Shown in pieces: positions 1,837 through 58,903 of a DNA stretch of 64,000 nucleotides; position 1 is the first letter of the stretch; every line of letters begins with the position of its first letter. A program made the position numbers and the translations under genes. The DNA is from Candidatus Aenigmatarchaeota archaeon (lineage in GTDB: Archaea > Aenigmatarchaeota > Aenigmatarchaeia > QMZP01 > QMZT01), in assembly GCA_011772645.1 (NCBI GenBank), contig WVZE01000001.1, positions 17,888-81,887 of the forward strand, read 5' to 3'. Below the pieces are notes generated by a model, which made no database searches, was not told where the DNA came from, and saw only the letters and a program-made list of their open reading frames with translations.

Positions 1837-3030
1837 TCACACAAATATCTTTACGACATCGAACTGTTTTAACTCACCCGGGTTTTCAAGGATCTCCGAG
1901 ATTGATGGTTTCGTCCTTCTCTTGTCACCTGAGACGAGCTCGTTTATGTACAAACCCGATTCGGTTCGAACTTCGAATTCGTAAATTTTTGTATTTATCT
2001 TTTTCCATTTAATACTTTTAACCTTTTTGTGCCTGAGTTTGTCTGGTTTGCTTTTCAAAAGCCTTCTCGGGGTTTTCTGTTTCACAACCCCCACTATTTT
2101 TCCAACCCTTTGGATATCCCTGACCGGGTTTTCGAAATTAACTCTTAACCTGTAGACCTTCTCGACCTTTTTCCTCTTTATTTCAACAATTTCCTTTCTC
2201 GAGGAGTATCTCAAATTCCTGACCTTTACCATCTTTCCCCTGTTTATCTCCCTTTCGATAATTTTCAGATTTATCCTCCTTTTAAGGGGCTGGTTGATTT
2301 CAAGAACGAAGGGCCTCCACGCCAGACATTTAGCCTGCCTGTCCTCCCTCCCGCATGCATGCATTGTGTGGGAGGAGGCTCTCGTGGTTTTCATTAAAGG
2401 TTTTGCTATGATGTCCTCAACGGTTTCATGTCCTTTCATCTTGGTCTGCGGAATGCCCCTCACAAGTTTTCTGTATTCTCCGTAAACGTATACCGGGTTG
2501 ATCAGGGTCTCTATTTGTTTGTTTTGCAGGTCAAGCAAAACTATAATCTCCGGTCTGTTCTCATCAGGGATCTTGCCTGTTTTTTTCTCTACCAGCTTTC
2601 CCAGTTCCCTGTTCAGTTCTGATTTTATGGGTTCGCAGTAAGCGATTCCTGATTTCTCCCAGAGGGATTCCTCTGCCATCGCGAGGGCATCATTCATTTT
2701 CACGCCAACCATGAAACTCTTGGAATCCATTTTTTTCAGTATCTTTGCCGCCTGGTCTGCGAATTTCGGAAGCTCCTCGAAGAGATTCTTACAGACCACG
2801 CAAATTCCGGGCTTCCTTGTTTTCATCTTCCTCCTGAACGTGAAACCGTGGAAATTTGAGGTATCCAGTTTGAAGGGTTTCGCCTCGTACTCCATCGCCA
2901 GTAACCTCCTCACGATCTCCCCCCTCTGATCGTTCGAGTAACCGCTAAGTAATTTTGCGAACTGCCTTCCGAGACAGTGATCGCAAACGAAACCTAAATT
3001 CATAATCTTTATTGCATTTTCCTTAATCAC
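1837..3030 (-). CDS. pus10: tRNA pseudouridine(54/55) synthase Pus10
   Basis: 397 aa. It has the N-terminal zinc motif 'CDHCLGRQF...CVVCKN' followed by a THUMP-like and catalytic domain. It shows archaeal Pus10 synteny with L21e. Confidence 0.8.
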   Translation of the reverse strand: MIKENAIKIMNLGFVCDHCLGRQFAKLLSGYSNDQRGEIVRRLLAMEYEAKPFKLDTSNFHGFTFRRKMKTRKPGICVVCKNLFEELPKFADQAAKILKKMDSKSFMVGVKMNDALAMAEESLWEKSGIAYCEPIKSELNRELGKLVEKKTGKIPDENRPEIIVLLDLQNKQIETLINPVYVYGEYRKLVRGIPQTKMKGHETVEDIIAKPLMKTTRASSHTMHACGREDRQAKCLAWRPFVLEINQPLKRRINLKIIEREINRGKMVKVRNLRYSSRKEIVEIKRKKVEKVYRLRVNFENPVRDIQRVGKIVGVVKQKTPRRLLKSKPDKLRHKKVKSIKWKKINTKIYEFEVRTESGLYINELVSGDKRRTKPSISEILENPGELKQFDVVKIFV

Positions 3031-3051
3031 GTTCTCACGTAGAAATTATGT

Positions 3052-3807
3052 TTACCTTATTTTTAAATCAAAAACCCCGATCGCGTTCCTTTTTGCGGCT
3101 TCAAGAACCTCTTCCTTAGAGATCCTCCGTATCTCCGATATCTTCTCCGCTGCCAATTTTATGTTCCAGGGATAGTTCCTCGGGTCCTTATCCTTGTACG
3201 GGGACAGGAACGGGGAATCGGTTTCGAGGAGGATTTTGTCTAAGGGAACGTCCTTCGCGATCTTGCGGATATTCTTGGAGAAGAGAACCTGGGTCGAAAT
3301 CGAGATGTGGAATTCACGGGAAATTATCTCCTTCGCGAGATCCCTCTTCCCAGAGAAACAGTGAAATACACATTTCGCATTTGAATCCTTTACCATCTCG
3401 TAACATTCGCTCTCAGCGTCCCATGAATGGATCACCAGGGGTTTTGAAAGTTTCTCTGCGAGATCTATAAATTTTGAAAATATCTCCCTTTGTTTTTCGT
3501 GTTTTGCCGGATCCTTCTCCCAGTGGTAGTCCAGTCCCGCTTCCCCAACGCTCACGATCTTCTCCCTGTTCTTCCTTATCAGGTCCATTATCCTTTCCGG
3601 GTCCTTCCCGCCCTCAACAGGGTGGAATCCTATACTCGGAAAAATAAAGCCAGGGTATTTCTCGGCGAGGGAAAGAACCTTCAGTCCCTCGTCATAGCGG
3701 GCAGAACTCGCTATCACTCCTGACAATTCCTGCTTGCATTTTTCTATGATCTGGTCCAGATCCCTTTCATAAGACTTCCAACACATGTGCGCGTGAATAT
3801 CGATCAT
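3052..3807 (-). CDS. tatD: TatD-family metal-dependent hydrolase/DNase
   Basis: 'MIDIHAHM', 'GEAGLDYH', 'VIHSWDA', 'FHCFSG' and 'LLETDSPFL' are the canonical TatD motifs. Confidence 0.9.
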   Translation of the reverse strand: MIDIHAHMCWKSYERDLDQIIEKCKQELSGVIASSARYDEGLKVLSLAEKYPGFIFPSIGFHPVEGGKDPERIMDLIRKNREKIVSVGEAGLDYHWEKDPAKHEKQREIFSKFIDLAEKLSKPLVIHSWDAESECYEMVKDSNAKCVFHCFSGKRDLAKEIISREFHISISTQVLFSKNIRKIAKDVPLDKILLETDSPFLSPYKDKDPRNYPWNIKLAAEKISEIRRISKEEVLEAAKRNAIGVFDLKIR

Positions 3808-3871
3808 AAGTGTTTATAATGGGTTTATTTTATAAAAATTGTTATTTCCAAAGTAAAATTTTCGAGTCTAT

Positions 3872-4231
3872 TTACAACCGTATACCAGTGTATTGGTATA
3901 ACACTGAAGCAGGCTCATCGATGAAATATTTTCTAAAGAAATTGATTTTATCCCCATGTCTGGCACGATATATATGATACAGTTCATGTTTGGCTATTCT
4001 TCTAAAATTTTTGGGATTTTTGAAGCTTACAGGATTAAACTGTACATATAAGCTTCCATCTTCATCATTAACTGCCATTGTAGAATATTCATTGAAGAAA
4101 AGCCACCAGTGCTTTAAACTTTCATAGTATTCGATGGGGGGTGGATTTAAGAATTTGACTTTAATAGGTGGTAATTTCAATCTTTTTCTTTCTTCTTCAA
4201 AAATTTTTCTTAATTCTTTTTTTATAACCAT
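3872..4231 (-). CDS. Hypothetical small protein with an HExxH motif (possible minimal zinc metallopeptidase-like protein)
   Basis: 119 aa, containing 'AKHELYHIYRARHGD' (HExxH). The gene and its flanks are visibly more AT-rich than the neighbouring genes. I recognise no family. Confidence 0.4.
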   Translation of the reverse strand: MVIKKELRKIFEEERKRLKLPPIKVKFLNPPPIEYYESLKHWWLFFNEYSTMAVNDEDGSLYVQFNPVSFKNPKNFRRIAKHELYHIYRARHGDKINFFRKYFIDEPASVLYQYTGIRL

Positions 4232-4261
4232 ATCAATTAAATACTGACTTAATTTTAAAAA

Positions 4262-5092
4262 TCATCCCTCAGCCAAGAAATAATCCATCGCATCCTCTAT
4301 CGTTCTCACCTCGGCCACCTCGATCCCCACTTCCTCTGAGATGCTAACCTCTGTGGGTATATTTTCTGTGGTGCATATCTGGGAGATTCCGATCTGTTCG
4401 CAGTATTTCTTTGTTTTGTACGTAACTTCCTTGGAATGCAGGAGGGGGACAAGTAGGATTTTCGCTCCAGCTTCCTTCGCAGCTTTTGCTTTCGGCAGGA
4501 TCTCGCCCACGGGCCCGATCGTTCCGTCGTGGTTTATCGCGCCCGTTATCATGACTTCGGGATTCAGTTTCTCTTTCTTAAGGGCCGCGATCGTGGCGAT
4601 CGTTAGGGCGGCTCCTGCAGAAGGTCCTTCCACCGCCGTGGCCTCTGTTTCAATGGTGTATATCACGTCGTAATCCGAGAGGTTGATTCCTGTGATGTTC
4701 GAGGCGACCTTTGTGGATGTTCGAATCGAATTTTGCGTGTCCGTCCAGAACAGGAGCCTGTCTATGTTTGCGAGGATTTTACCGGAGCCGGGAACTATCT
4801 GGACGCTTAGAACGGTTGTCAATCCTTCCCCTTCCTCGTCAACAGCGGGAACCACGATCGATGAGGAGGAGGCGTTTTCCGAGATGTATGGAACGTACGT
4901 CACGACGTTCGCGGGCCTTGTCTGGTTGTAATTGATAATAATGACCTCGTTCATTCCCCCTATGTAATATCCCAGAAAGTATGCGATTGCCATTAAAACT
5001 ATGAGGGTTGTTGTTTTGACTCCCCTGTATCTGCGGGATTCCCTGCGCATATTCATATAATTGTTTTTGAACTTATAATTGCTTTGGTTCAA
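4262..5092 (-). CDS. Membrane-anchored S16 (Lon C-terminal proteolytic domain) serine protease
   Basis: It has an N-terminal TM helix ('TTTLIVLMAIAYFLGYYIGG'). The Lon protease domain motifs are 'EGPSAGAALTIATIAAL' (catalytic Ser) and 'ITGAINHDGTIGPVGEILPKAKAAKEAGA' (catalytic Lys). Confidence 0.75.
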   Translation of the reverse strand: MNQSNYKFKNNYMNMRRESRRYRGVKTTTLIVLMAIAYFLGYYIGGMNEVIIINYNQTRPANVVTYVPYISENASSSSIVVPAVDEEGEGLTTVLSVQIVPGSGKILANIDRLLFWTDTQNSIRTSTKVASNITGINLSDYDVIYTIETEATAVEGPSAGAALTIATIAALKKEKLNPEVMITGAINHDGTIGPVGEILPKAKAAKEAGAKILLVPLLHSKEVTYKTKKYCEQIGISQICTTENIPTEVSISEEVGIEVAEVRTIEDAMDYFLAEG

Positions 5093-5109
5093 ACCAACCG
5101 GATTAAAAA

Positions 5110-5392
5110 TAGTGGTAGGAACACGCCATCAGTGGATGCTGATCAACCAGAAGGTTTATCCACAATCCCTCCTCCACTCCGCTACCCTTCAAGCGTTGTT
5201 AATATAACTTAGGGCTGCCACCTTCCGGTTCTGACCCGGTTCATCACATTAAAAACCCTGAAGGACAGAGCTTCTCAGTTGGGAATATGGGCCTTTTGGT
5301 TTCTCAGTATCGCCTTTAGGCTTCGACTCCGTCATGAAGGCGGTTTACGGTTACAGGAGACGCCTGACCTCCCAGTCTAGTCCCTACCATCT
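5110..5392 (-). ncRNA. Signal recognition particle RNA (archaeal 7S/SRP RNA)
   Basis: The minus strand reads 'GGGAGGTCAGGCGTCTCCTGTAACCGTAAACCGCC' (5'/Alu-like domain). It also reads 'GGGTCAGAACCGGAAGGTGGCAGCCCTAAG', the helix-8 region with a GGAA tetraloop (compare 4.5S 'GGTCAGGTCCGGAAGGAAGCAGCC'). The 5' 'GGTAGGGAC' can pair with the 3' 'GTTCCTACC'. A TATA-like 'TTTTAAA' lies about 25 nt upstream (5412..5418) and an oligo-T follows the 3' end. There is no credible ORF in this 360-bp gap. The ends are approximate (+/-10 nt). Confidence 0.85.
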
Positions 5393-5452
5393 TTCTCTTG
5401 TAAATGCGTATTTAAAAGTTTATTTTTATGAAACCGAAACGAATAATTTAAT

Positions 5453-6331
5453 ATGTTATCATTCTACAAGAAACTGGCGCTGACCTTTTTTGGAGGTGTT
5501 GTTGACAGGTATATAGACTCCTTCAGGCCGCTTGAACCGCACATAAAAAATGCAAACATGAAGATTCTGTTGAAAACGTGGGTGTCTCTCATAATCTTCA
5601 CGAGTATCATGCTGTTCCTCATAACGTTCATTTTAACCTATGTCGTTCTCACCTTTTTCATACAGGTTGAGTTCTACATCTACATTTTCACAACAATATT
5701 CCTGCCCGTTTTTGTTGCGTCTGTCGCTTTCATAATTTTCTATCTTTACCCTGTACAGAGAGAAAACTCGAGAAAGAACAGCATAGAGAACAACCTTCCA
5801 TTCGCCACAACCCACATGGCTGCCATCGCCTCTTCAGGCATCCCGACCGAGTTTGTGTTTGAACTGCTGATGGGTTTTAAAGAGTACGGGGAAATAGCAG
5901 AGGAATCGAGACTTATAATGAGGAACATAAAAACTTTTGGAATGAGCAGCGTGGATGCGATAAAGAACGTCGGCGACAGAACACCTTCCCAGGAATTCAG
6001 GGAACTGCTGCTGGGAATCGTCTCGACAATAGAAACCGGGGGGAACCTCATACAATACCTGAGGGAGATGTCCGACAAGGCGTTGTTCGATTACAGGATC
6101 AAGAGGGAAAAGTACCTGAAGACTCTTTCCACTTATGCGGATATCTATACCGCACTTCTTGTCGCAGCTCCCTTGATGATGCTTGCATTGTTGGCAACCA
6201 TGAGCATAATAGGAGGTCAGGTCCTGGGTCTGGGCATACAGGATGTCATGCTGCTCATAACGTGGTTGGTATTGCCAGTACTGAATATCTCTTACCTTGC
6301 TTTCATACACGTAACATATCCGGGGATGTGA
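5453..6331 (+). CDS. Type II secretion system F-domain membrane platform protein, first of two (FlaJ/TadB/EpdJ-like)
   Basis: 292 aa and polytopic. The cytoplasmic region 'NLPFATTHMAAIASSGIP...' followed by C-terminal TM helices is typical of a T2SSF domain. Confidence 0.75.
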   Translation: MLSFYKKLALTFFGGVVDRYIDSFRPLEPHIKNANMKILLKTWVSLIIFTSIMLFLITFILTYVVLTFFIQVEFYIYIFTTIFLPVFVASVAFIIFYLYPVQRENSRKNSIENNLPFATTHMAAIASSGIPTEFVFELLMGFKEYGEIAEESRLIMRNIKTFGMSSVDAIKNVGDRTPSQEFRELLLGIVSTIETGGNLIQYLREMSDKALFDYRIKREKYLKTLSTYADIYTALLVAAPLMMLALLATMSIIGGQVLGLGIQDVMLLITWLVLPVLNISYLAFIHVTYPGM

Positions 6332-40199: not shown

Positions 40200-40637
40200 T
40201 TATCCGCAAGGTATTGAAACCACTGTCGCTCCCGTTCCTCCTGTGATGAACCTGTACGTGCACACTGTTGGTCCTGCTGTCGTGCATATATCTCTGAAAG
40301 TCAATGTTGCCTGCGTTCCAAGGTTTCCACTGGAAGGATTTATGCTCGCACCATTGAACGTACCACCATCCGTTCTTGTTATTGTCAGTGCTCCGCACGT
40401 GGCTGATGTACCGCTGAAGGAACATGCAGCAGATCCTAGTGCTATCGATTCCGTTCCCGAGTTTCTGAGTATAACGTTGGATGTGTTGGCACCCGTGCAG
40501 TAGGAGTCAACCAAGGAGATGGATTTGGTGTAGGTGATCAAGAACCCCGAAAGGTATGTCCATGCAGTTGCTGCCAAGCCTATCGTTATCAGCAGTAAGA
40601 TTATTATGGCGATTATTGGGGTTATGCCCTTTCTCAT
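40200..40637 (-). CDS. Archaeal type IV pilin-like protein (class III signal peptide)
   Basis: The N-terminus 'MRKGITPIIAIIILLLITIGLAATAW' is followed by a Ser/Thr/Gly-rich beta region with Cys pairs. Confidence 0.7.
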   Translation of the reverse strand: MRKGITPIIAIIILLLITIGLAATAWTYLSGFLITYTKSISLVDSYCTGANTSNVILRNSGTESIALGSAACSFSGTSATCGALTITRTDGGTFNGASINPSSGNLGTQATLTFRDICTTAGPTVCTYRFITGGTGATVVSIPCG

Positions 40638-43206: not shown

Positions 43207-44457
43207 ATGAAGATATTCTCTGACCTTCACATCCACTCAAGGTTCTCCAGAGCGACCAGTAAGGAACTGAACATAGAAAATCTCGTGAAATACGCAAAAA
43301 TGAAAGGTTTGAATCTTCTTGGTACGGGAGATTTCACGCATTCTCTCTGGCTGAAAGAGTTAAAGGAGGATCTCAGGGAAGACGGTTCCGGGATTCTTAA
43401 AAGCAAGGGGGGTTTTAGCTTCCTGCTCTCGGCAGAGGTTTCAAACATCTATACCCAGGACAACAGGCAAAGGAGAATCCACAACGTAATTCTCGCCAAG
43501 GATTTCGAAACGGTTGAGCAGATAAATGATTGGTTATCCAAGAAGGGGAGGCTTGATTACGACGGCAGGCCTATATTCGGTTTCACATGCACAGAACTCG
43601 TAGAGAACATCGTGGGTATATCAAAGGATTGTATGATAATACCAGCCCATATCTGGACACCCTGGTTTTCGCTGTTCGGTTCGAAATCCGGATTTGATCG
43701 CATTGAGGAGTGTTTTCAGGATCAAACCAAAAACATATTCGCCCTGGAAACCGGGCTGTCCTCTGACCCTGAGATGAACTGGAGGCTGTCCTCCCTGGAC
43801 AGGTATGCTCTGGTTTCATTTTCCGATCTTCATTCGTTCTGGCCATGGAGAATCGGAAGGGAAGCCACGGTTTTTGAGATGAAGGAACTGACATATGATA
43901 ATTTGGTAAAAAGCATAAGGACGAAAGAGGGTTTGGTGGAGACAATCGAAGTCGATCCTTCCTACGGTAAATATCATCACGACGGACACAGAGGTTGTGG
44001 GGTTTCGCTGAGTCCTGAAGAGGCAAGGAATTCGAATAACCTCTGCCCGGTTTGTAAACGCCCGCTGACGATCGGGGTTTTACACAGGGTTGAGGAACTC
44101 GCCGACAGGGATAAAGGATTCGTTCCGAAGGATTCAAAACCCTTCCGTTCGCTGATCCCGCTGTCCGAGATCATATCGATCGTCCTTGGCTCACCGGTAA
44201 ATTCGCGGAGGGTGTGGGAGGAATACAACAAGCTTGTAAACGCCTTTGGATCCGAGTTCAACGTCCTGATGGAGGCGGGCAGAGAGCAGTTGATTAACAT
44301 CTCGAATGAAAGAATGGTTGATCTGATCTTGAATGCAAGATCCAGGAACATAAGAATAAATGCGGGTTACGATGGGGTTTACGGAGAACTCGTCATGAAG
44401 GAAGACGAAACCGAGGGGTTGGAAAAACCCCAGAAAACCCTGAAAGACTTCAGTTAG
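43207..44457 (+). CDS. endoQ: Endonuclease Q (PHP-like N-terminal domain plus zinc finger; cleaves 5' of deaminated bases)
   Basis: 'DLHIHSRFSRATSK...GLNLLGTGDFTH', 'IPAHIWTPW', 'GLSSDPEM', 'SFSDLHS', 'GKYHHDGHRGC' and 'CPVCKRPLTIGVLHRVEELAD' are collinear with Pyrococcus EndoQ, as I recall that sequence. Confidence 0.75.
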   Translation: MKIFSDLHIHSRFSRATSKELNIENLVKYAKMKGLNLLGTGDFTHSLWLKELKEDLREDGSGILKSKGGFSFLLSAEVSNIYTQDNRQRRIHNVILAKDFETVEQINDWLSKKGRLDYDGRPIFGFTCTELVENIVGISKDCMIIPAHIWTPWFSLFGSKSGFDRIEECFQDQTKNIFALETGLSSDPEMNWRLSSLDRYALVSFSDLHSFWPWRIGREATVFEMKELTYDNLVKSIRTKEGLVETIEVDPSYGKYHHDGHRGCGVSLSPEEARNSNNLCPVCKRPLTIGVLHRVEELADRDKGFVPKDSKPFRSLIPLSEIISIVLGSPVNSRRVWEEYNKLVNAFGSEFNVLMEAGREQLINISNERMVDLILNARSRNIRINAGYDGVYGELVMKEDETEGLEKPQKTLKDFS

Positions 44458-45392
44458 AACCCTGTCACCGTCAGGGAGGTCGCCGCATCTGTAAAGTATT
44501 CGTATGTCGCCCTTATCTTTAAGGTTTTTTTCAGTATGTTGATTCCTGTCCATTTATCGCCTTCGGAAAACAGTGAAATCTCCCCGTCGCAAACCACAGT
44601 TCTCGACCGGCCTTCCCATAAATCAACTTCGTCGTACATCCCCACTTCGCAGTCCTTCAGGTTCATTCCGGATTCTGGGTCTGTCTCCAGAAAGACCTTG
44701 TTCCAGTTTACCGAATCATCACAGGTTGGATAGCAGGCAACTCCTCCCCCGGCGTTTTCGATGGATATGGATATCGGAAACTCTACTTTGTTTGTGTCTT
44801 CGATGTATCTGACAGGGCTCCTCATCTGTATGCTGAGTTTGACCGGCCCTGCCGTGAGGCTGGTGGTTTCACTCGGAAGCGATCTCCCCTGCGCCTGTAT
44901 CGATCTCAATTCGCTCTCTGATATTATCGTAACGGATTTTACTATGTTGCTCTCGTAATCATAATACACCCTCAGGCTGGGGTTGAACGTTATTTTCGAG
45001 TTTCTCGGTATATCCTCGGGTGCGGAACATTTCCATATGCAGGTCTTTGATTCCCCTGTTGTTCCCGCCCGGGGGTCAGGAGCGAGAAACCTTTCTATCA
45101 CTTCCGAGCATTCTGTTTTGCAGGAGATTTCAAGTCCTCTGTTTTCATAGGTGGCTCCTATGTTGGAAAGCTCGAACCTAACATTCCCTGCATCAACAGA
45201 GCCGGTGTTTCTTATCATCAGCTGAAGGTTAAAGGGCTCCCCGGAATACATTTCAGAGGGATTCGATACAAAGCTCTCTATAACTATCCCGTTTCCGGAA
45301 GTTGTTTGCTGTCCCACACAGCCTGATAACAAAACTAAACAAAAAACGAGCAAAGTTAACTGGGCCGGTTTCGTCATAATTTTATATTGCAT
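44454..45392 (-). CDS. Secreted lipobox-type surface protein, paralogue 1 of 4 (two beta-sandwich-like halves)
   Basis: The signal and lipobox are 'LLVFCLVLLSGC'. It shares family motifs with the next three genes: 'GIVIESF', 'IRNTGSVDA', 'LAPDP', 'RVYYDYES', 'ENAGGG' and the C-terminal 'ATYEYFTDAATSLTV'. Confidence 0.6.
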   Translation of the reverse strand: MQYKIMTKPAQLTLLVFCLVLLSGCVGQQTTSGNGIVIESFVSNPSEMYSGEPFNLQLMIRNTGSVDAGNVRFELSNIGATYENRGLEISCKTECSEVIERFLAPDPRAGTTGESKTCIWKCSAPEDIPRNSKITFNPSLRVYYDYESNIVKSVTIISESELRSIQAQGRSLPSETTSLTAGPVKLSIQMRSPVRYIEDTNKVEFPISISIENAGGGVACYPTCDDSVNWNKVFLETDPESGMNLKDCEVGMYDEVDLWEGRSRTVVCDGEISLFSEGDKWTGINILKKTLKIRATYEYFTDAATSLTVTGF

Positions 45393-45407
45393 ACGAGGCT
45401 TTTATCC

Positions 45408-46385
45408 TTATCCGCTCGGCAGAACCCTTATCTGAATGGTTTTATCTATGAAGTAACCATATTCCGCTGTCAGCCTTATGTTCTTCTGGGTCAGCCTTTC
45501 AGGAATCTCGTGGACCTGAATCTTGCAGGAGATAGTCTGGGACTTGCCCATTATCAGCAAGATCTCTTCCGTTTCTTCGCAGCTGCCCTCCTCGAAGTTC
45601 ATTCCTTCGGGCAACTCTATGTATAATCTGAACTGGTTCCACATGGATCCACCTTCTGTGTATTTCCTGCAGCTGTCACTGTTCTCGCAGACCGTTCCCC
45701 CTCCGATGTTATCTATCTTTATGACCATCGGGAACGTCAGGGTTTGTCCGTAGGTTCTTATCGGACTCCTGGTCTCTATGTCCAAGGATACGGGAGAGTC
45801 TGATTCGCTCGTTGTTTCCACGGGCAGGCTTTTGCCCTGGTTCTGGATCACCCTCAGCTCGTCCTTGGGAACGATCGTGACCGTTTTTATGAGGAATGAT
45901 TTGTAATCATAGAAAACGCGAGCCCGCGGTCTGTAATCGGCGTAAAGGCCGGGCGGAACATCGGGGGCGACATACCCCCACGTACATATTTTATCGCTGC
46001 CCTCTATTCCTGCGGACGGGTCCGGAGGCAGCAACACGATACCTCTCTGATCGTATTGGCATTCCCTTTCGTAGGGGAAAACCTCCTGGTTTCTGGGGTT
46101 CTTCCTTGCATCGTCCCTTCCTTTCCACAGCTGATCAAGGCCAAGGAGCTCTGCATAACCGTTCTCCGCTTTCACGCTACCCGTGTTTCTGAATTTAAGA
46201 ACGAAGGTTACCTCCTCATTCGAATACACCTCGCTTAATTCGGGGTCTGTCCTGAAGCTCTCTATAACTATTCCCGATCCGACCGGCGTCTGAGAATCGA
46301 ACGGCACGCCAGGCATCACGCACCCCGAAGCTAGGATTAAAGAAAAGACCATAAAGCCCGAGCAGATAATTTTTTGGCTACTCAT
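45408..46385 (-). CDS. Secreted lipobox-type surface protein, paralogue 2 of 4
   Basis: The signal and lipobox are 'FSLILASGCVMPG'. Family motifs are 'GIVIESF', 'FRNTGSVKA', 'LPPDP', 'RVFYDYKS', 'DNIGGG' and 'AEYGYFIDKTIQIRV'. Confidence 0.6.
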   Translation of the reverse strand: MSSQKIICSGFMVFSLILASGCVMPGVPFDSQTPVGSGIVIESFRTDPELSEVYSNEEVTFVLKFRNTGSVKAENGYAELLGLDQLWKGRDDARKNPRNQEVFPYERECQYDQRGIVLLPPDPSAGIEGSDKICTWGYVAPDVPPGLYADYRPRARVFYDYKSFLIKTVTIVPKDELRVIQNQGKSLPVETTSESDSPVSLDIETRSPIRTYGQTLTFPMVIKIDNIGGGTVCENSDSCRKYTEGGSMWNQFRLYIELPEGMNFEEGSCEETEEILLIMGKSQTISCKIQVHEIPERLTQKNIRLTAEYGYFIDKTIQIRVLPSG

Positions 46386-46419
46386 AATTATATAATTGTC
46401 GAAAAATAAATAAAAAGAG

Positions 46420-46427
46420 GTTTAAAC
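46420..46427. promoter_or_regulatory. GTTTAAAC TATA/BRE-like element upstream of paralogue 2
   Basis: It lies 35-42 nt upstream of the start at 46385 and overlaps the stop codon of paralogue 3. Confidence 0.3.
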
Positions 46428-47402
46428 GAACTCCTCGAATCCTTTGACTGTTATCTGAGTTGCTGCATCCACGTAGTATATGTAACCCAGCTTTATCTCG
46501 AAGTTTTTCTTGACCTTGTTCGTGGGTGGCTGCGTCACTTGGAATTCGCATGTTACGTCCGTGTACTTTCCGTTCCAAACCCTAACGTATCTTCCGAATG
46601 CCGGAGTTGACAGGAATGGCGGCAGGTTTTCATAGATGCCTGTCCCGAATTGGATCTGTCTTGGACAGTCACCGACCGGTATAACACCATCAGGCCATAC
46701 AACCTCGATAGCGACCGGGTAATCCCTTCCGAATATCTGTCCTCCTCCCGTGTTGTCTATCCTTATCTGGAGCTGGAATTTGGATTCCCTCCATTCCCTT
46801 GCCTTCACGAACTGTCCTGTATCAACCGTAACACTCAGCGGGCCGGATGTTAGTACGGTGGCTTCTGTGTCCAGGGTTCCTCCTCCCTGTACCACTCTTC
46901 TGAGTTCCTCGGCCGTCACAAACCACACTGGTTTGGTCGCTCGCGTCTCATAGTAATAGTAAATCCTTGCAATTGGTTCGTATGTCATTCTCTGGTTTCT
47001 GGAAAGTGTTGGTGTTATCACGTCCCAGTCTGCCCTTCCCCTTCCGCCTTCTGTCTGCATTTCCGGATCAGGAGCAAGCAGCAAACCAAGGTCCCTGTAA
47101 ACATCTCCGTACAAATTCCATTCGGTCGTGTCTATTCCTGTAAGCTCCGCGACTGTCGGAGCGTTGTTGTAGTCTCCCCTGTTGACAACTTCCAGATGGA
47201 GACTTACTGGTTCGTCCGATTCGATGGGCGTTGTCTGGCCTAATGTTGGTTGGAAGATTTCAACAAAAATTCCTTGTCCTCCTCCTGTTGCTGGTCCAAC
47301 ACCAGGCATGGTACAACCAGAGGTTACGGTAACTGCAGCAATGAATAACAGCAAAAAGAACTTCACGTTCCTTCCGAATGCTGTTCCCATCATCTTTATC
47401 AT
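46422..47402 (-). CDS. Secreted lipobox-type surface protein, paralogue 3 of 4
   Basis: The signal and lipobox are 'IAAVTVTSGCTMPG'. Family motifs are 'GIFVEIF', 'VVNRGD', 'LAPDP', 'RIYYYYET', 'DNTGGG' and 'LGYIYYVDAATQITV'. Confidence 0.6.
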   Translation of the reverse strand: MIKMMGTAFGRNVKFFLLLFIAAVTVTSGCTMPGVGPATGGGQGIFVEIFQPTLGQTTPIESDEPVSLHLEVVNRGDYNNAPTVAELTGIDTTEWNLYGDVYRDLGLLLAPDPEMQTEGGRGRADWDVITPTLSRNQRMTYEPIARIYYYYETRATKPVWFVTAEELRRVVQGGGTLDTEATVLTSGPLSVTVDTGQFVKAREWRESKFQLQIRIDNTGGGQIFGRDYPVAIEVVWPDGVIPVGDCPRQIQFGTGIYENLPPFLSTPAFGRYVRVWNGKYTDVTCEFQVTQPPTNKVKKNFEIKLGYIYYVDAATQITVKGFEEFV

Positions 47403-47450
47403 TTTAATATTTAACCTGTTACGCTTATAAATTTAATTTGTGTTCAGAAA

Positions 47451-48434
47451 TCAATCCAGCTCGATCTCCGGCTCTATCGTTAATCTGATCTTCTTGGTGA
47501 ATTTGTAGGAATACTTGATTTTCGAGGTGAGCTGGTAGGTTTTCTCCTGGGTTATCCACCCAGGATTTCTTGGTTCTATTTCGCACGAGAATTTCGGCGA
47601 GGTTTTTCCGATAAGTTTCAGTCCTTCTTCATCTATTTTTTCCTTGCATTTTTCACATCCTGTTACCTCCTCTTCGCCTGTTGCCTCACTTTTGGCACAA
47701 CCTATTTCTATATCGTCCTTCACTATCGTATTTCCTTCAAGTTCTCCTCTTCCCCTGTTCTCGACCCAGAAGGTCATCATGCCCTTCCCAGTTGATTTTA
47801 CATCCGCATCCGGTCTTATGTCCACCATTATCGGCTGGTCAGGAGCCTCTATGTACGATTTTACAGGACCTTCGCCCACGACTATGGTTCCCTTCTCGCT
47901 GAACGTCTTGCCCTGGGAAATCAGGTTCTCGAGCTCCTGCTGGTTCACGAAACTCACGGAAGATGTGGTGTGTGTTGTGTATGTATAACTAACAAGAACC
48001 CCGACATCGCAGGGTGTTTTTATCCTCATTGAGTTCGCCTTCATCTTCCAGTCGACTATAGCGGTCGATTGCGGATACATCTTATCGATCGTGCATTTTT
48101 TGTCCTGGAAGCTCCCCCCGGTGCATATGCTTCCCGTTGTTTCGAATATCCCGCAGTCGTCATACAGCTCTATCTCCACGGTTTCCTGTGGGTCGCTCTC
48201 GGGCTTCTGGAGGTTCTGGACGTACGCGCGAAGCGTTAGGGTCTGCCCGGACCTTATCGTGTGGGACGGGATGGCCTGCAGACTCTGTATGAAAACAACG
48301 TCGTGTCTGAACTCCTCCACGTTTGGTCCGAAGAGGTCGGAAATTATTGGTATCCTGAAATCCGTTCCGGGTATTACGCATCCAGAAATCATCAGCAGTG
48401 GTACCAGGAGGGTTATCAGCAAAGGTTTCCTCAT
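47451..48434 (-). CDS. Secreted lipobox-type surface protein, paralogue 4 of 4 (most divergent)
   Basis: The signal and lipobox are 'LVPLLMISGCVIPG'. It has the same length and two-half layout, with 'VSYTYTT', 'QQELENLISQGKTF' and 'VENRGRG'. It is Cys-rich. Confidence 0.55.
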   Translation of the reverse strand: MRKPLLITLLVPLLMISGCVIPGTDFRIPIISDLFGPNVEEFRHDVVFIQSLQAIPSHTIRSGQTLTLRAYVQNLQKPESDPQETVEIELYDDCGIFETTGSICTGGSFQDKKCTIDKMYPQSTAIVDWKMKANSMRIKTPCDVGVLVSYTYTTHTTSSVSFVNQQELENLISQGKTFSEKGTIVVGEGPVKSYIEAPDQPIMVDIRPDADVKSTGKGMMTFWVENRGRGELEGNTIVKDDIEIGCAKSEATGEEEVTGCEKCKEKIDEEGLKLIGKTSPKFSCEIEPRNPGWITQEKTYQLTSKIKYSYKFTKKIRLTIEPEIELD

Positions 48435-52441: not shown

Positions 52442-53620
52442 ATGGCTGATGTTGAGATTTCTGAGAGGGAGGAACAGCTCCCTGTGTCGACAATCGGGGA
52501 ACTCATTAAGATCGCGGAGGAGAAGGAGGGGATTGTCTCTCTGGGTCCCGGAGAACCCGATTTTGGTTCGCCCAAGAACATAATAGATTTTGCCTGCAGG
52601 AAACTGAAAGAGGGGTTTACACACTACTCCCCCCCGGGCGGGAGGAGTGAACTGAAGGAAGCGGTTGCAAAAAAACTAAGGAGGGACAACAAGATACGCG
52701 TCTCCCCTGATCAGGTTATCATCACGTGCGGTTCAACAGAGGCGATTCTTTTGAACCTGATATGCACGATCGATCCAGGAGAGGGTGTTCTCATCCCTGA
52801 TCCTGGTTTTCTCGCTTACAAGCCTGCTGTCGAGATCTTGAACGGCATGCCTCTCTGCATTCCACACCAAGAAAAGGACGGGTTTCAGTTTAAAATCGAG
52901 GAAGCGGAAAGTGCTATAGTCCCGGAAAAAACAAAGGTTATGATAATAAACACCCCATCAAATCCTACCGGGGTTGTGTTTAAAAAGAAAACGCTGGAGG
53001 AAATCGCAGATTTCGCTTGCGAATATGACCTGTGTGTGATATCTGATGAAGCATATGAGAAACTGATTTATGATGGAGAAAAACACGTTTCGATAGGATC
53101 GTTAAATGGGATGGAAGAGAGGGTTTTAACTCTGCAGTCCTTTTCAAAAACGTATGCCATGCCTGGGTTCCGTGTAGGCTATGCTGCCGGCCCGGAAGAG
53201 GCGATAAACGCCATGAAAAAGGTTCACATTTATTCATCCATCTGTGCTCCGACGGTTTCGCAGCTTGCCGCGCTGGAGGCGCTGGGGGGATCGCAGGCGT
53301 GTGTGAAGAAGATGGTCAAGGAATATGACCGAAGGAGGAAACTGATAATAAAACGGCTGAATGAGATCCCTGGTTTTTCCTGCGTAAAACCTAAAGGGGC
53401 CTTCTACGCGTTTCCCAATATAGAAAGGTTTGGAATGAAATCACTGAAATTTTCCAGGTGGTTGATTGAAAAGGCCGGTGTCGCGACTGTCCCAGGAACA
53501 GAGTTTGGAAGGCGCGGAGAAGGGCATATCAGGTGTTCCTATGCAACGTCTTATGAGAAGATTGGAATTGCGTTGGATAGGATTGAAAAAACAACCAAAA
53601 AACTGAAGTTGGGTAGATAA
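52442..53620 (+). CDS. Class I/II pyridoxal-phosphate-dependent aminotransferase (aspartate aminotransferase-like)
   Basis: 'NTPSNPTG' and 'SFSKTYAMPGFRVGY' (PLP lysine) are present, together with 'R.SYA'. Confidence 0.85.
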   Translation: MADVEISEREEQLPVSTIGELIKIAEEKEGIVSLGPGEPDFGSPKNIIDFACRKLKEGFTHYSPPGGRSELKEAVAKKLRRDNKIRVSPDQVIITCGSTEAILLNLICTIDPGEGVLIPDPGFLAYKPAVEILNGMPLCIPHQEKDGFQFKIEEAESAIVPEKTKVMIINTPSNPTGVVFKKKTLEEIADFACEYDLCVISDEAYEKLIYDGEKHVSIGSLNGMEERVLTLQSFSKTYAMPGFRVGYAAGPEEAINAMKKVHIYSSICAPTVSQLAALEALGGSQACVKKMVKEYDRRRKLIIKRLNEIPGFSCVKPKGAFYAFPNIERFGMKSLKFSRWLIEKAGVATVPGTEFGRRGEGHIRCSYATSYEKIGIALDRIEKTTKKLKLGR

Positions 53621-53628
53621 CGCCCTGG

Positions 53629-53732
53629 TTTCTTATGGAAGTGTTTTTTTGTGGGGGTTGTGTTTAACACCCATAATATAACAGTGTAATACAATTTCCA
53701 GTGGAAGCTTTTAAAACTGTTTCCATAAGAAA
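53629..53732. other. Candidate replication origin (ORB-like elements) upstream of cdc6
   Basis: A perfect 12-bp inverted repeat, 'tttcttatggaa' (53629..53640) and 'ttccataagaaa' (53721..53732), brackets the palindromic ORB-like 'TTTCCAGTGGAAG' (53695..53707). The position directly upstream of orc1/cdc6 matches the classical archaeal oriC arrangement. Confidence 0.5.
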
Positions 53733-53784
53733 TCATAGGGTTGTGGAGAAAAGAATTTAAACCCCTATTTCATATGGAGATATT

Positions 53785-55003: not shown

Positions 55004-55900
55004 ATGAACAAAAAAGACATGGTGTCCGTTTTCTTGAAGGAAGGCGTGCTCGTCACACCGGATCTGCTGGAAAGGATCAACGAGGAAAACTACGAAGAAA
55101 TTTTGATGTCGCTCAAAGAAAAGAAGAAGCCAAAGGAAGAAAACAAACCCAAAAAAACCGCGGAAAGAAAGAAAGAGGCCGGCGTGAAAGATTTTTTAGA
55201 TTACTACAGCAGGAAATACGAGTTTCTCAAAGGGATCTTGTTGAAGAAAATGAATGCGGTCTCCATAAACAAGGGGAAGAAAATATTCTCCAAAACCTCG
55301 ATAATAGGGAGGGTGAAGGAAAAAACCTCAAGGGGATTTGTGATAGAGGATGTTACGGGCGAAGTGGAGGCCGTGACAGAGGGAAAGGGAACGGTGGAGG
55401 GGGACGTGATTGGCCTGAAAGGGTGGTTCAAGGAAGGCGGCTTCTTACCAGAAGAATTTGTTTGGCCGGACATTCCGCTGGCGAACAGGGGAGAACCCCC
55501 GAACTTTCTGTTAACCAGGAAGTTAACCGAAAAAATCAAGGAAAGAAGCGGAAAAGATGTTGTCATCAGTCTGGATTCTGAAGAAATAAAAACTCCAGAT
55601 CCACGCTGGATCGATGTTTCGCACGGAGAGAGAAAAGTCTCTGCCCTTATCCTTAGACCGGAAAACCCCATTGGAGAGGAGGGTTTTATGAATTTTCTGA
55701 AGAGGAGGGAACTTCCGCACGAAAGAAAAGCAGGCATATATACACCCTATCTTATAGAGAAAATACCAAACATAGTCTGGCTTATTGAGAACAAGGGAAA
55801 CTGGACCAAGAATTACAGGGGAGTAATCGTGGTATCAACAGACCATGAGAGTTTTTTCCAATATAAGGAGAACGAAGGGGGTAAATTTGAGAAAATATAA
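55004..55900 (+). CDS. DNA polymerase D small subunit (DP1)-like protein with a truncated, motif-less phosphodiesterase domain
   Basis: The N-terminus 'FLKEGVLVTPDLL' and the OB fold 'SIIGRVKEKTSRGFVIEDVTGEVEAV...GDVIGLKG...WPDIPL' look like DP1. The C-terminus 'FLKRRELPHE...YRGVIVVS' parallels the DP1 'L..RHLAP...YRGV' region. The protein is only 298 aa, and the DxH, GDxxDG, GNHD and GHxH metal motifs are absent. Confidence 0.6.
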   Translation: MNKKDMVSVFLKEGVLVTPDLLERINEENYEEILMSLKEKKKPKEENKPKKTAERKKEAGVKDFLDYYSRKYEFLKGILLKKMNAVSINKGKKIFSKTSIIGRVKEKTSRGFVIEDVTGEVEAVTEGKGTVEGDVIGLKGWFKEGGFLPEEFVWPDIPLANRGEPPNFLLTRKLTEKIKERSGKDVVISLDSEEIKTPDPRWIDVSHGERKVSALILRPENPIGEEGFMNFLKRRELPHERKAGIYTPYLIEKIPNIVWLIENKGNWTKNYRGVIVVSTDHESFFQYKENEGGKFEKI

Positions 55901-55945: not shown

Positions 55946-56620
55946 ATGCTTAAAATACTCCTCATCGCGGACGTTCACGGAGAAATAGAGAAACTCTCCA
56001 GATTTATCAAATCCTTCAGGGAAAGAGATTTCGATCTGGTTTTGTGCCCTGGAGACTTCACGGACATGTTCAACATCCCGGAAGGGTATACGCAGACGGA
56101 CGTTGCGGAAATTGTTCTGCAGAAACTTATTTCATTAGGTAAGCCCGTTTTTTGCATACCGGGCAATCACGAACCCTATGAAATTTTGGAGCTATTTAAT
56201 GAATACGGCGTGAACCTTCACGCGAAATCCAGAAAGTTCAGGGAATTCGAATTCATCGGTTTTGGCGGGGCCACCACCCCCTTCAACACAAAATTCGAAC
56301 CGACAGAGGATGAAATAAGGGAGAGCCTTTGGAGGCTGAAACCACGCTCTAACGGGAGGACTATCCTTGTGACGCACTGCCCTCCGTACGGAACAGTGGT
56401 GGATAAAACAGAAACAGGAGAACACGTCGGCTCGAAGACCATACGGGATTTCATAGAAAAGGAAAAACCAATTTTAGCATTTTCTGCTCACATACACGAG
56501 GCAGGAGGCGTTGATAAAATAGGAAGAACAGTGATATTCTATCCTGGAGCGATATTCAATAACTCGTACGGTTTGGTGACTATAGACAAAGAAGTAAAAT
56601 GCGAAACGAAAAAATTCTAA
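55946..56620 (+). CDS. Calcineurin-like metallophosphoesterase (stand-alone, ~225 aa)
   Basis: All motifs are present: 'IADVHG', 'PGDFTD', 'PGNHE', 'THCPPYG' and 'SAHIHE'. Confidence 0.8.
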   Translation: MLKILLIADVHGEIEKLSRFIKSFRERDFDLVLCPGDFTDMFNIPEGYTQTDVAEIVLQKLISLGKPVFCIPGNHEPYEILELFNEYGVNLHAKSRKFREFEFIGFGGATTPFNTKFEPTEDEIRESLWRLKPRSNGRTILVTHCPPYGTVVDKTETGEHVGSKTIRDFIEKEKPILAFSAHIHEAGGVDKIGRTVIFYPGAIFNNSYGLVTIDKEVKCETKKF

Positions 56621-58687: not shown

Positions 58688-58903
58688 GGAACAGCCTGAA
58701 ATTTCACATGGAATTCACATGAAACACACGAAACCGTTATGCAGCTTACCATATCGGAAATTTCCACAGGAAATGAAGGTGTCCCCCCATTCACATAAAC
58801 TTTCGGAATATTAGATGAAGTTCTTATGTTCAAACTTCACGAGACTTTCGAAATAAAATGAACCAAAATGCTTCACAGTGAAGTTCAAAAACTTCATCGC
58901 TGG

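Follow-up and report, generated by a model that had tools for sequence, protein, structure and literature searches.

A miniature, apparently inactive DP1 beside cdc6 in an Aenigmatarchaeota genome, probably the B-subunit-like partner of a neighbouring family-B DNA polymerase

Most Aenigmarchaeota are devoid of DP2 and harbor a group of inactivated DP1 proteins (Kazlauskas 2020, NAR; PMC7544198). The family-B DNA polymerase (PolB) called 'B6' in these archaea carries a C-terminal zinc (Zn) motif most similar to the C-terminal domain (CTD) of DP2, and it was proposed that a CTD-bearing, self-proofreading PolB afforded DP1 inactivation (PMC7544198). Binding of an Aenigmatarchaeota DP1 to PolB-DP2CTD was later reported from yeast two-hybrid (Y2H) assays and AlphaFold3 (AF3) models, the polymerase being described as bearing a 'degenerate DP2CTD' (Feng & Wu 2025, Nat Ecol Evol; PMC12680538). 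Here, we describe DP1L, a miniature DP1-like protein encoded beside cdc6 in a stretch of 64,000 nucleotides from a Candidatus Aenigmatarchaeota archaeon (contig WVZE01000001.1 of assembly GCA_011772645.1, positions 17,888 to 81,887 of the forward strand), hereafter called the window. DP1L is probably the DP1 of Aenigmatarchaeota, devoid of catalytic activity and serving, like a B-subunit, as an accessory to the family-B polymerase encoded nearby. The core of this statement, an inactive DP1 together with a CTD-bearing PolB and no DP2, is already published, and no new kind of system is claimed. The present analysis adds to the main text of those two papers a residue-level map of the lost motifs with the extent to which the phosphodiesterase (PDE) domain is miniaturised, the context of cdc6 and of clusters of origin recognition boxes (ORB), and a conserved neighbour, the metallophosphoesterase MPE224.

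Two other kinds of systems serve for comparison. In PolD, the Zn-III finger of DP2 docks in a groove of DP1 located between the OB and PDE domains; a 20-residue Zn-III peptide is enough for nanomolar binding, and the helical bundle of the DP2 CTD touches other loops of the PDE domain (Raia 2019, PMC6355029). In Thermococcus kodakarensis, the N-terminal domain of DP1 (DP1N) binds the C-terminal domain of Gins51 (Gins51C), in a manner resembling the interaction of the Dpb2 N-terminal domain (Dpb2N) with Psf1 (Oki 2021, PMC9023282). In eukaryotes, the B-subunits of Pol delta (p50/Pol31), Pol epsilon (p59/Dpb2), and Pol alpha (p70/Pol12) associate a dead PDE domain with an OB fold, and their partner is a family-B polymerase that combines an exonuclease of its own with a Zn module at the C-terminus. 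These B-subunits keep a full-size PDE domain, and the CTD of the partner is made up of two modules (CysA and CysB) with a helical linker.

The DP1L open reading frame (ORF) starts with ATG, 22 nt past the stop codon of cdc6 and on the same strand. Its relationship with DP1 is detected at several levels. The NCBIfam model of the PolD small subunit, NF003118, matches residues 50-163 (E 5.5e-16), corresponding to the OB part. A phmmer search gives weak matches to the Pyrococcus abyssi DP1 chains over residues 27-166, and a profile of the DP1L family recovers, at E 2e-8, the DP1 chains of P. abyssi and T. kodakarensis. When the 154-member family is compared by hhalign with a small canonical DP1 profile (P0045, a 496-residue DP1 in which every motif is present, together with the P. 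abyssi and T. kodakarensis sequences), the alignment has a probability of 99.94% (E 1.1e-35) and runs from end to end, pairing residues 1-298 of DP1L with residues 7-494 of canonical DP1. Pfam gives no match in DP1L at E<=1, and the gathering threshold of PF04042 (DNA_pol_E_B) is not reached, because the curated model cannot accommodate so small and divergent a PDE remnant; nor does Pfam call a DP1 domain in the longer relatives P0043 and P0044. The PDE homology is recovered solely via profile-profile and structure comparison. HMMER gives independently the same register for the distal PDE block 'FLKRRELP...IEKIPNIVWL...YRGVIVVS'. DP1L is a genuine homologue of DP1 and of the DNA-polymerase B-subunits over its whole length. 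An earlier reading of this DNA, made from the letters alone (the original prediction), had named DP1L a DP1 homologue and had aligned it in three regions, the N-terminal helices, the OB fold and the distal PDE domain. The homology stands, upheld by hhalign, NF003118, the DP1 chains found with the family profile and the 48 best structural matches described below, and hhalign aligns the three regions as stated. The profile check that had been suggested yields nothing in Pfam, the support for a PolD small subunit coming from NF003118 and hhalign.

The domain layout of DP1L follows that of canonical DP1 (P. abyssi, PDB 5IHE/6HMS; PF04042 and PF00149). Residues 1-30, with the N-terminal segment 'FLKEGVLVTPDLL', align by hhalign to the canonical N-terminus, and L11, P19, and N29/Y30 of this module are invariant or nearly so in the family. 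Dpb2, whose N-terminal helical domain binds GINS, offers a comparable arrangement, and by analogy with T. kodakarensis DP1N the module may be regarded as a putative GINS-binding domain. A Lys/Glu-rich linker follows at about residues 41-60; it is predicted to be disordered in the AlphaFold2 (AF2) model, where the predicted local distance difference test (pLDDT) score falls below 50. In common with canonical DP1 are the N-terminal helical domain, the OB fold, the PD(I/V)P hinge, the C-terminal PDE core motifs (LLKxRHLAP, ExxPD, YRG), and the origin-proximal site beside cdc6. In contrast, DP1L lacks the five nuclease motifs, about 130 PDE residues and a DP2 partner.

The loss of the active site can be followed motif by motif. 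DP1L has E176-K-I178 at motif I (canonical D-x-H), D191-S-E-E194 at motif III (GNHD), L217-R218 at motif IV (Y-H-G), and I261-E-N-K264 at motif V (G-H-x-H); motif II (GDxxDG) is deleted. The strand of motif III is itself recognizable, the family consensus being 'G-x-I-I-C-P' as compared to 'P-L-I-I-C-P-G-N-H-D' in canonical DP1. Column statistics across the 154 family members find no conserved Asp, His, or Asn in the metal-ligand columns. That DP1L is catalytically dead, all five Mre11-like metal-ligand motifs having been lost, is thus a well-founded prediction from the sequences. The original prediction had rightly announced this loss, and the alignment recovers none of the motifs, with II deleted and I, III, IV, and V substituted. 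Some of its assignments need to be corrected, however. The segment 'SLDSEE', which it had put in place of motif I ('SDIHVGS'), sits instead at the motif III strand, and the substitution 'ENKG' proposed for motif V is real but off by one residue.

Besides these substitutions, the PDE domain has shrunk to about half, from about 290 residues in canonical DP1 to about 135 in DP1L. In the hhalign map, the missing PDE residues number 26+47, 25, 11, 6, and 17, about 132 in total, and the first two figures make up the 73-residue deletion within which motif II disappears. The original prediction of a central gap of about 110 residues was therefore right as to the loss, but the missing residues are more numerous and are distributed over five larger gaps and a small one rather than forming one block. 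What remains is the C-terminal PDE core (LKKR..., E-x-P-D/N, W, YKG). L232, R235, P255, W259, and Y271-K-G-V are conserved in the remnant, and all are matched in canonical DP1 (LLKxRHLAP, E-x-P-D, Y-R-G).

The AF2 model of DP1L, obtained with the family alignment, has a mean pLDDT of 82 and a predicted template modelling (pTM) score of 0.69. It consists of three N-terminal helices, the disordered linker, a long helix, the OB barrel, and a compact C-terminal domain of nine strands and two helices. A Foldseek comparison to the PDB places DP1 chains first (E 3e-11 to 3e-10), and down to rank 48 the other matches are solely B-subunits of eukaryotic Pol delta, epsilon, alpha, and zeta, the 48 matches spanning E 3e-11 to 3e-4. 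Since nothing but DP1 and B-subunits is returned down to that rank, the predicted fold corresponds to a DP1/B-subunit whose PDE sandwich has been pruned, and the structural check proposed at the outset, a superposition on DP1 and eukaryotic B-subunits, is answered in the affirmative. Like eukaryotic B-subunits, DP1L combines a dead PDE domain with an OB fold and is proposed to assist a family-B polymerase equipped with its own exonuclease and with a Zn module at its C-terminus. Unlike them, DP1L and its presumed partner are minimal both in the PDE domain and in the PolB CTD, and sequence identity is only about 10%. Inactivated homologues of DP1 had been said to be otherwise known as the eukaryotic B-subunits; the latter are indeed known, but the inactivated DP1 of Aenigmarchaeota had been described as well, in 2020 (PMC7544198).

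DP1L is not an isolated case. In a database of 5.8 billion proteins, 45 DP1L clusters (90% identity) are found at E<=1e-3, 43 of which correspond to full-length relatives of 278-371 residues; most named members bear the label Candidatus Aenigm(at)archaeota. When 1.84 billion representatives (clusters at 50% identity) are searched exhaustively with a profile, 139 matches are obtained at E<=1e-30, a number that rises to 455 at E<=1e-10 and to 771 at E<=1e-3, and nearly all of the top 150 have 265-370 residues and are aligned end to end. Among the 154 aligned family members, from independent assemblies, the median length is 298 residues. In four pairs of related genomes, the ratio of nonsynonymous to synonymous substitution rates (dN/dS) is 0.11-0.35 for DP1L, as compared to 0.02-0.09 for cdc6 and 0.06-0.27 for MPE224. 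DP1L is fast-evolving and yet clearly under purifying selection.

These data bear on the idea that DP1L is a functionless object, either a decaying, pseudogene-like remnant or an assembly or indel artefact. The loss of all catalytic motifs and of half a domain would fit such an idea, as would an evolution faster than that of its neighbours (35-45% identity, as compared to 55-70% for MPE224). However, the frame is intact, the length is constant in the 154 members, the dN/dS values indicate constraint, the AF2 fold is confident, and invariant surface and core residues are kept, making this explanation extremely improbable. A sequencing gap or an indel, which the original prediction had wished to see checked, is excluded because the family matches are near-constant in length from end to end; together with dN/dS, this family-wide constancy also rules out a pseudogene.

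The probable partner of DP1L is the PolB encoded 3 kb downstream on the opposite strand. A motif scan shows that it keeps Exo I-III and Pol A-C intact, and this Zn-finger polymerase is retained within the block in about 17 species. Its tail is a single Cys4 module without helical bundle, matching the published 'B6-aenigma1' and 'degenerate DP2CTD' tails (PMC7544198; PMC12680538). By analogy with PolD and eukaryotic polymerases, the Zn finger of PolB would lodge in the DP1L groove that separates the OB fold from the PDE remnant, just as Zn-III of DP2 fits onto DP1, and the N-terminal module of DP1L would tether the polymerase to GINS/CMG, as in DP1N-Gins51 and Dpb2N-Psf1. Proofreading would be provided by the exonuclease of PolB itself, and it is proposed that the DP1 nuclease therefore became dispensable and decayed. 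The CTD of PolB, having a Zn finger but no helical bundle, and the PDE domain of DP1, deprived of the parts that contact the bundle, may have shrunk jointly to a minimal interface. A non-catalytic scaffolding role had been part of the original prediction and is still the best reading; the protein had been treated there as an orphan, however, and both the Zn-finger PolB 3 kb away and the prior literature had been missed.

Table 1. Positions of DP1L, its domains, and surrounding features in the window.
Feature	Position (nt)	Strand	Basis or remark
Putative replication origin: 22-nt inverted repeat (53619-53640 / 53721-53742), A+T-rich spacer	53619..53742	.	
Orc1/Cdc6 replication initiator, 398 aa	53785..54981	+	Pfam Cdc6_C, Cdc6_lid, AAA; NCBIfam TIGR02928 (E 8e-125)
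DP1L: miniature, apparently inactive DP1 / B-subunit-like protein, 298 aa	55004..55900	+	Homology searches, hhalign, predicted structure, column statistics
DP1L, N-terminal helical module, DP1N-like (aa 1-40)	55004..55123	+	hhalign; three helices in AF2
DP1L, helix and OB fold closing in the invariant W-P-D-I-P-L hinge (aa 61-159)	55184..55480	+	NF003118; PDB DP1 alignments; pLDDT > 90
DP1L, reduced PDE-fold remnant (aa 164-298)	55493..55897	+	hhalign map and gap list, column statistics, AF2
MPE224: intact 224-aa metallophosphoesterase, TT1561/aq_1956 class	55946..56620	+	Pfam Metallophos and Metallophos_3; Foldseek; synteny
XRE-type helix-turn-helix (HTH) protein, 241 aa	56617..57342	-	Pfam HTH_3; synteny
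Second inverted pair of ORB-like elements, TctA / PolB-3' intergenic	58702..58773	.	Recurs in 10 related loci
Family-B DNA polymerase (PolB), 878 aa	58904..61540	-	Pfam DNA_pol_B (E 1e-109) and exo1; motif scan
PolB, C-terminal Zn finger, C842-x2-C-x12-C-x-C860	58961..59017	-	Conserved in all orthologues; DP2-CTD/Zn-III-like

As anticipated by the original prediction, cdc6 adjoins DP1L and no DP2 follows it among the ORFs of the window. DP2 proteins exceed about 1000 residues. Since the largest ORFs are those of alanyl-tRNA synthetase (945 residues), PolB (878), and PPDK (870), no DP2 is encoded in these 64 kb, and none is encoded either in the 16-20 kb loci of relatives. In the outgroup, the DP2 gene comes after the canonical DP1 P0045.

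A synteny scan of the GTDB species representatives retrieves 17 loci, 9 titled Aenigm(at)archaeota and 8 'uncultured archaeon'. The order in most of them is that of the window: CoA ligase (minus strand), aminotransferase, cdc6, DP1L, MPE224, HTH (minus strand), TctA, and PolB (minus strand). A different organisation is found in a distant member of the Aenigmarchaeota (GCA_026397385.1, locus L022). There, a motif-less DP1 of 384 residues (P0044) is encoded 10 bp upstream of a 923-residue PolB carrying the same type of Zn tail as the PolB of the window; this dp1-polB operon (1950-5885), with no cdc6 nearby, mirrors the classical dp1-dp2 operon. P0044 and DP1L have in common an Aenigmarchaeota origin, the absence of motifs, the pairing with a Zn-finger PolB, and an MPE224 orthologue nearby. 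They differ in that P0044 has about 90 more PDE residues and lies in an operon with PolB instead of beside cdc6, the two proteins having 28% identity. The 384-residue protein may represent an intermediate stage of DP1 reduction.

Independently of these comparisons, some taxonomic labels call for comment. Locus L026 (GCA_964522675.1), labelled Promethearchaeota, contains an Aenigmatarchaeota-type block made of a CoA ligase, cdc6, a 314-residue DP1-like protein, a metallophosphoesterase (MPE), and HTH; the Asgard assignment of this metagenome-assembled genome or contig seems to stem from an error of binning or labelling, and the same seems to hold for P0010 and P0196, both labelled Syntropharchaeia.

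The upstream region of cdc6 gives the locus its origin-like context. Three ORB-like TTCCA-N3-GAAA elements are found at 53629, 53695, and 53721, in a 164-bp intergenic region. The whole window has 6 matches to this pattern, as compared to 1.85 expected, and half of them are located in this short region. The elements agree with the TTCC...GAA core of the Pyrococcus ORB and mini-ORB (PMC1904270), and ORB-like clusters are present upstream of cdc6 in all related loci. From the sequence, the region upstream of cdc6 is likely a replication origin. With the second inverted pair (Table 1), two ORB-like clusters enclose cdc6-DP1L-MPE-HTH-TctA, an arrangement reminiscent of Thermococcales, where two ORB clusters (oriC and dp1) flank cdc6. 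A lone perfect TTCCAGTGGAAA element also occurs at 40324-40335 (minus strand), just downstream of the alanyl-tRNA synthetase gene.

This context suggests another role, in which DP1L would act at the origin chiefly in concert with Cdc6, its OB fold making it a DNA-binding or recruitment factor for initiation, instead of being a permanent subunit of PolB. The short same-strand gap of 22 nt after cdc6 and the ORB-like repeats immediately upstream would agree with it, and the cdc6-DP1L adjacency is retained through every rearrangement seen except L022. Moreover, the oriC-cdc6-dp1 association is known in Euryarchaeota, where it was proposed to reflect recruitment between Cdc6 and DP1 (PMC2643942). 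In L022, however, the inactive DP1 shares an operon with PolB, away from any cdc6, and in the published Y2H experiments it is the PolB CTD that DP1 binds. A role centred on Cdc6 thus appears rather unlikely, although both roles could coexist.

Several points nevertheless weigh against the assignment of DP1L to PolB. DP1L is mostly co-oriented with cdc6, at a distance of 22 nt, and not with PolB, which is 3 kb away on the opposite strand; operon logic therefore favours Cdc6 at least as much as PolB. In addition, the metabolic genes of the block are syntenic too, and part of the linkage may reflect a clade-wide collinearity of the genomes. For the pair encoded in the window, a DP1L-PolB contact would be deduced from PolD and eukaryotic structures and from the Y2H and AF3 results published for the lineage. 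The absence of DP2 and of a second DP1 elsewhere in the genome rests on the literature. Finally, DP1L shares with the published inactivated DP1 of Aenigmarchaeota the phylum, an inactive PDE domain, the absence of DP2, and a B6-type PolB with a Zn motif, but this is a likeness by description; that group, for which GCA_002789635 is listed, may belong to the family of about 295 residues.

Directly downstream of DP1L lies MPE224, an intact metallophosphoesterase that the original prediction had overlooked. It scores 60 bits with PF14582, for a cut-off of 28 bits, and has a complete set of invariant ligands (D9, H11, D37, N74, H144, H182, and H184). Its AF2 model has a pLDDT of 93. Foldseek places 2yvt (aq_1956; E 7.5e-14) and 1uf3 (TT1561; E 2.5e-11) on top, with further likenesses to GpdQ, Rv0805, MPPED2, and Mre11; no DP1 or B-subunit appears among its top 50 structural matches. 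MPE224 evolves more slowly than DP1L, with 55-80% identity where DP1L shows 35-45%. It stays beside cdc6-DP1L in the order of the window and also where this order is inverted, namely in L021 and L027 (<-DP1L <-cdc6 | MPE-> <-HTH), and in L022 an orthologue is found 1.2 kb upstream of the dp1-polB operon. This last protein has GNMD at motif III instead of GNH[D/E]. Three more distant homologues (53-58% identity, one of them labelled Promethearchaeota) are all located in an Aenigmatarchaeota-type block. The gene of the HTH protein, in which an N-terminal XRE-type HTH is followed by an uncharacterised C-terminal domain of about 160 residues, is always convergent with MPE224 (with a 4-nt overlap in the window), and both relocate jointly in L021 and L027. 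Elsewhere in the window, four consecutive ORFs of the same strand (312, 325, 326, and 327 residues) at 44454-48434 (minus strand) are possibly an array of tandem paralogues.

The position of MPE224 raises the question of a split DP1, in which DP1L would stand for the N-terminal module and the OB fold and MPE224 for the nuclease domain acting in trans. MPE224 is immediately downstream with all its metal ligands invariant, and it accompanies cdc6-DP1L in three different gene arrangements, that of the distant L022 lineage among them. Against this, DP1L has its own PDE remnant, and because this remnant aligns right up to the C-terminal end of DP1, no part has been detached. The closest structures of MPE224 are those listed above, with DP1 and B-subunits missing from the top 50, and in L021 and L027 it has followed the HTH gene and not DP1L. 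A split DP1 is accordingly very improbable, and MPE224, being TT1561/aq_1956-like, was rejected as a split-off nuclease half.

Any role of MPE224 in replication is speculative. Its linkage is weak evidence of a common function, because the entire block, metabolic genes included, is collinear in the clade. It is distinctly doubtful that MPE224 is a dedicated third component of a PolD-less replisome, supplying in trans the phosphoesterase or nuclease activity lost with the inactivation of DP1. If it were so, its activity could be, for instance, the processing of 3' ends or primers, and the locus would offer a natural minimal polymerase/B-subunit interface, made of a co-shrunken DP1 PDE domain and a single PolB Zn finger, plus a separate nuclease.

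In eukaryotic replicative polymerases, a family-B catalytic subunit and a dead DP1-like B-subunit are joined via a C-terminal Zn module. Only two archaeal lineages, Aenigmatarchaeota being one of them, have been reported to possess a chimeric PolB with a DP2-like CTD together with an inactive DP1 and no DP2. This chimeric design is the reason why Aenigmatarchaeota are used as a model for the origin of the eukaryotic architecture, a point already made, and partly tested, by others. DP1L indicates how much a B-subunit can lose while under selection, namely all of its catalytic ligands and around 50% of its PDE domain. The part retained, made of the N-terminal module, the OB fold, the hinge, and the C-terminal PDE core, would be useful for the design of minimal constructs.

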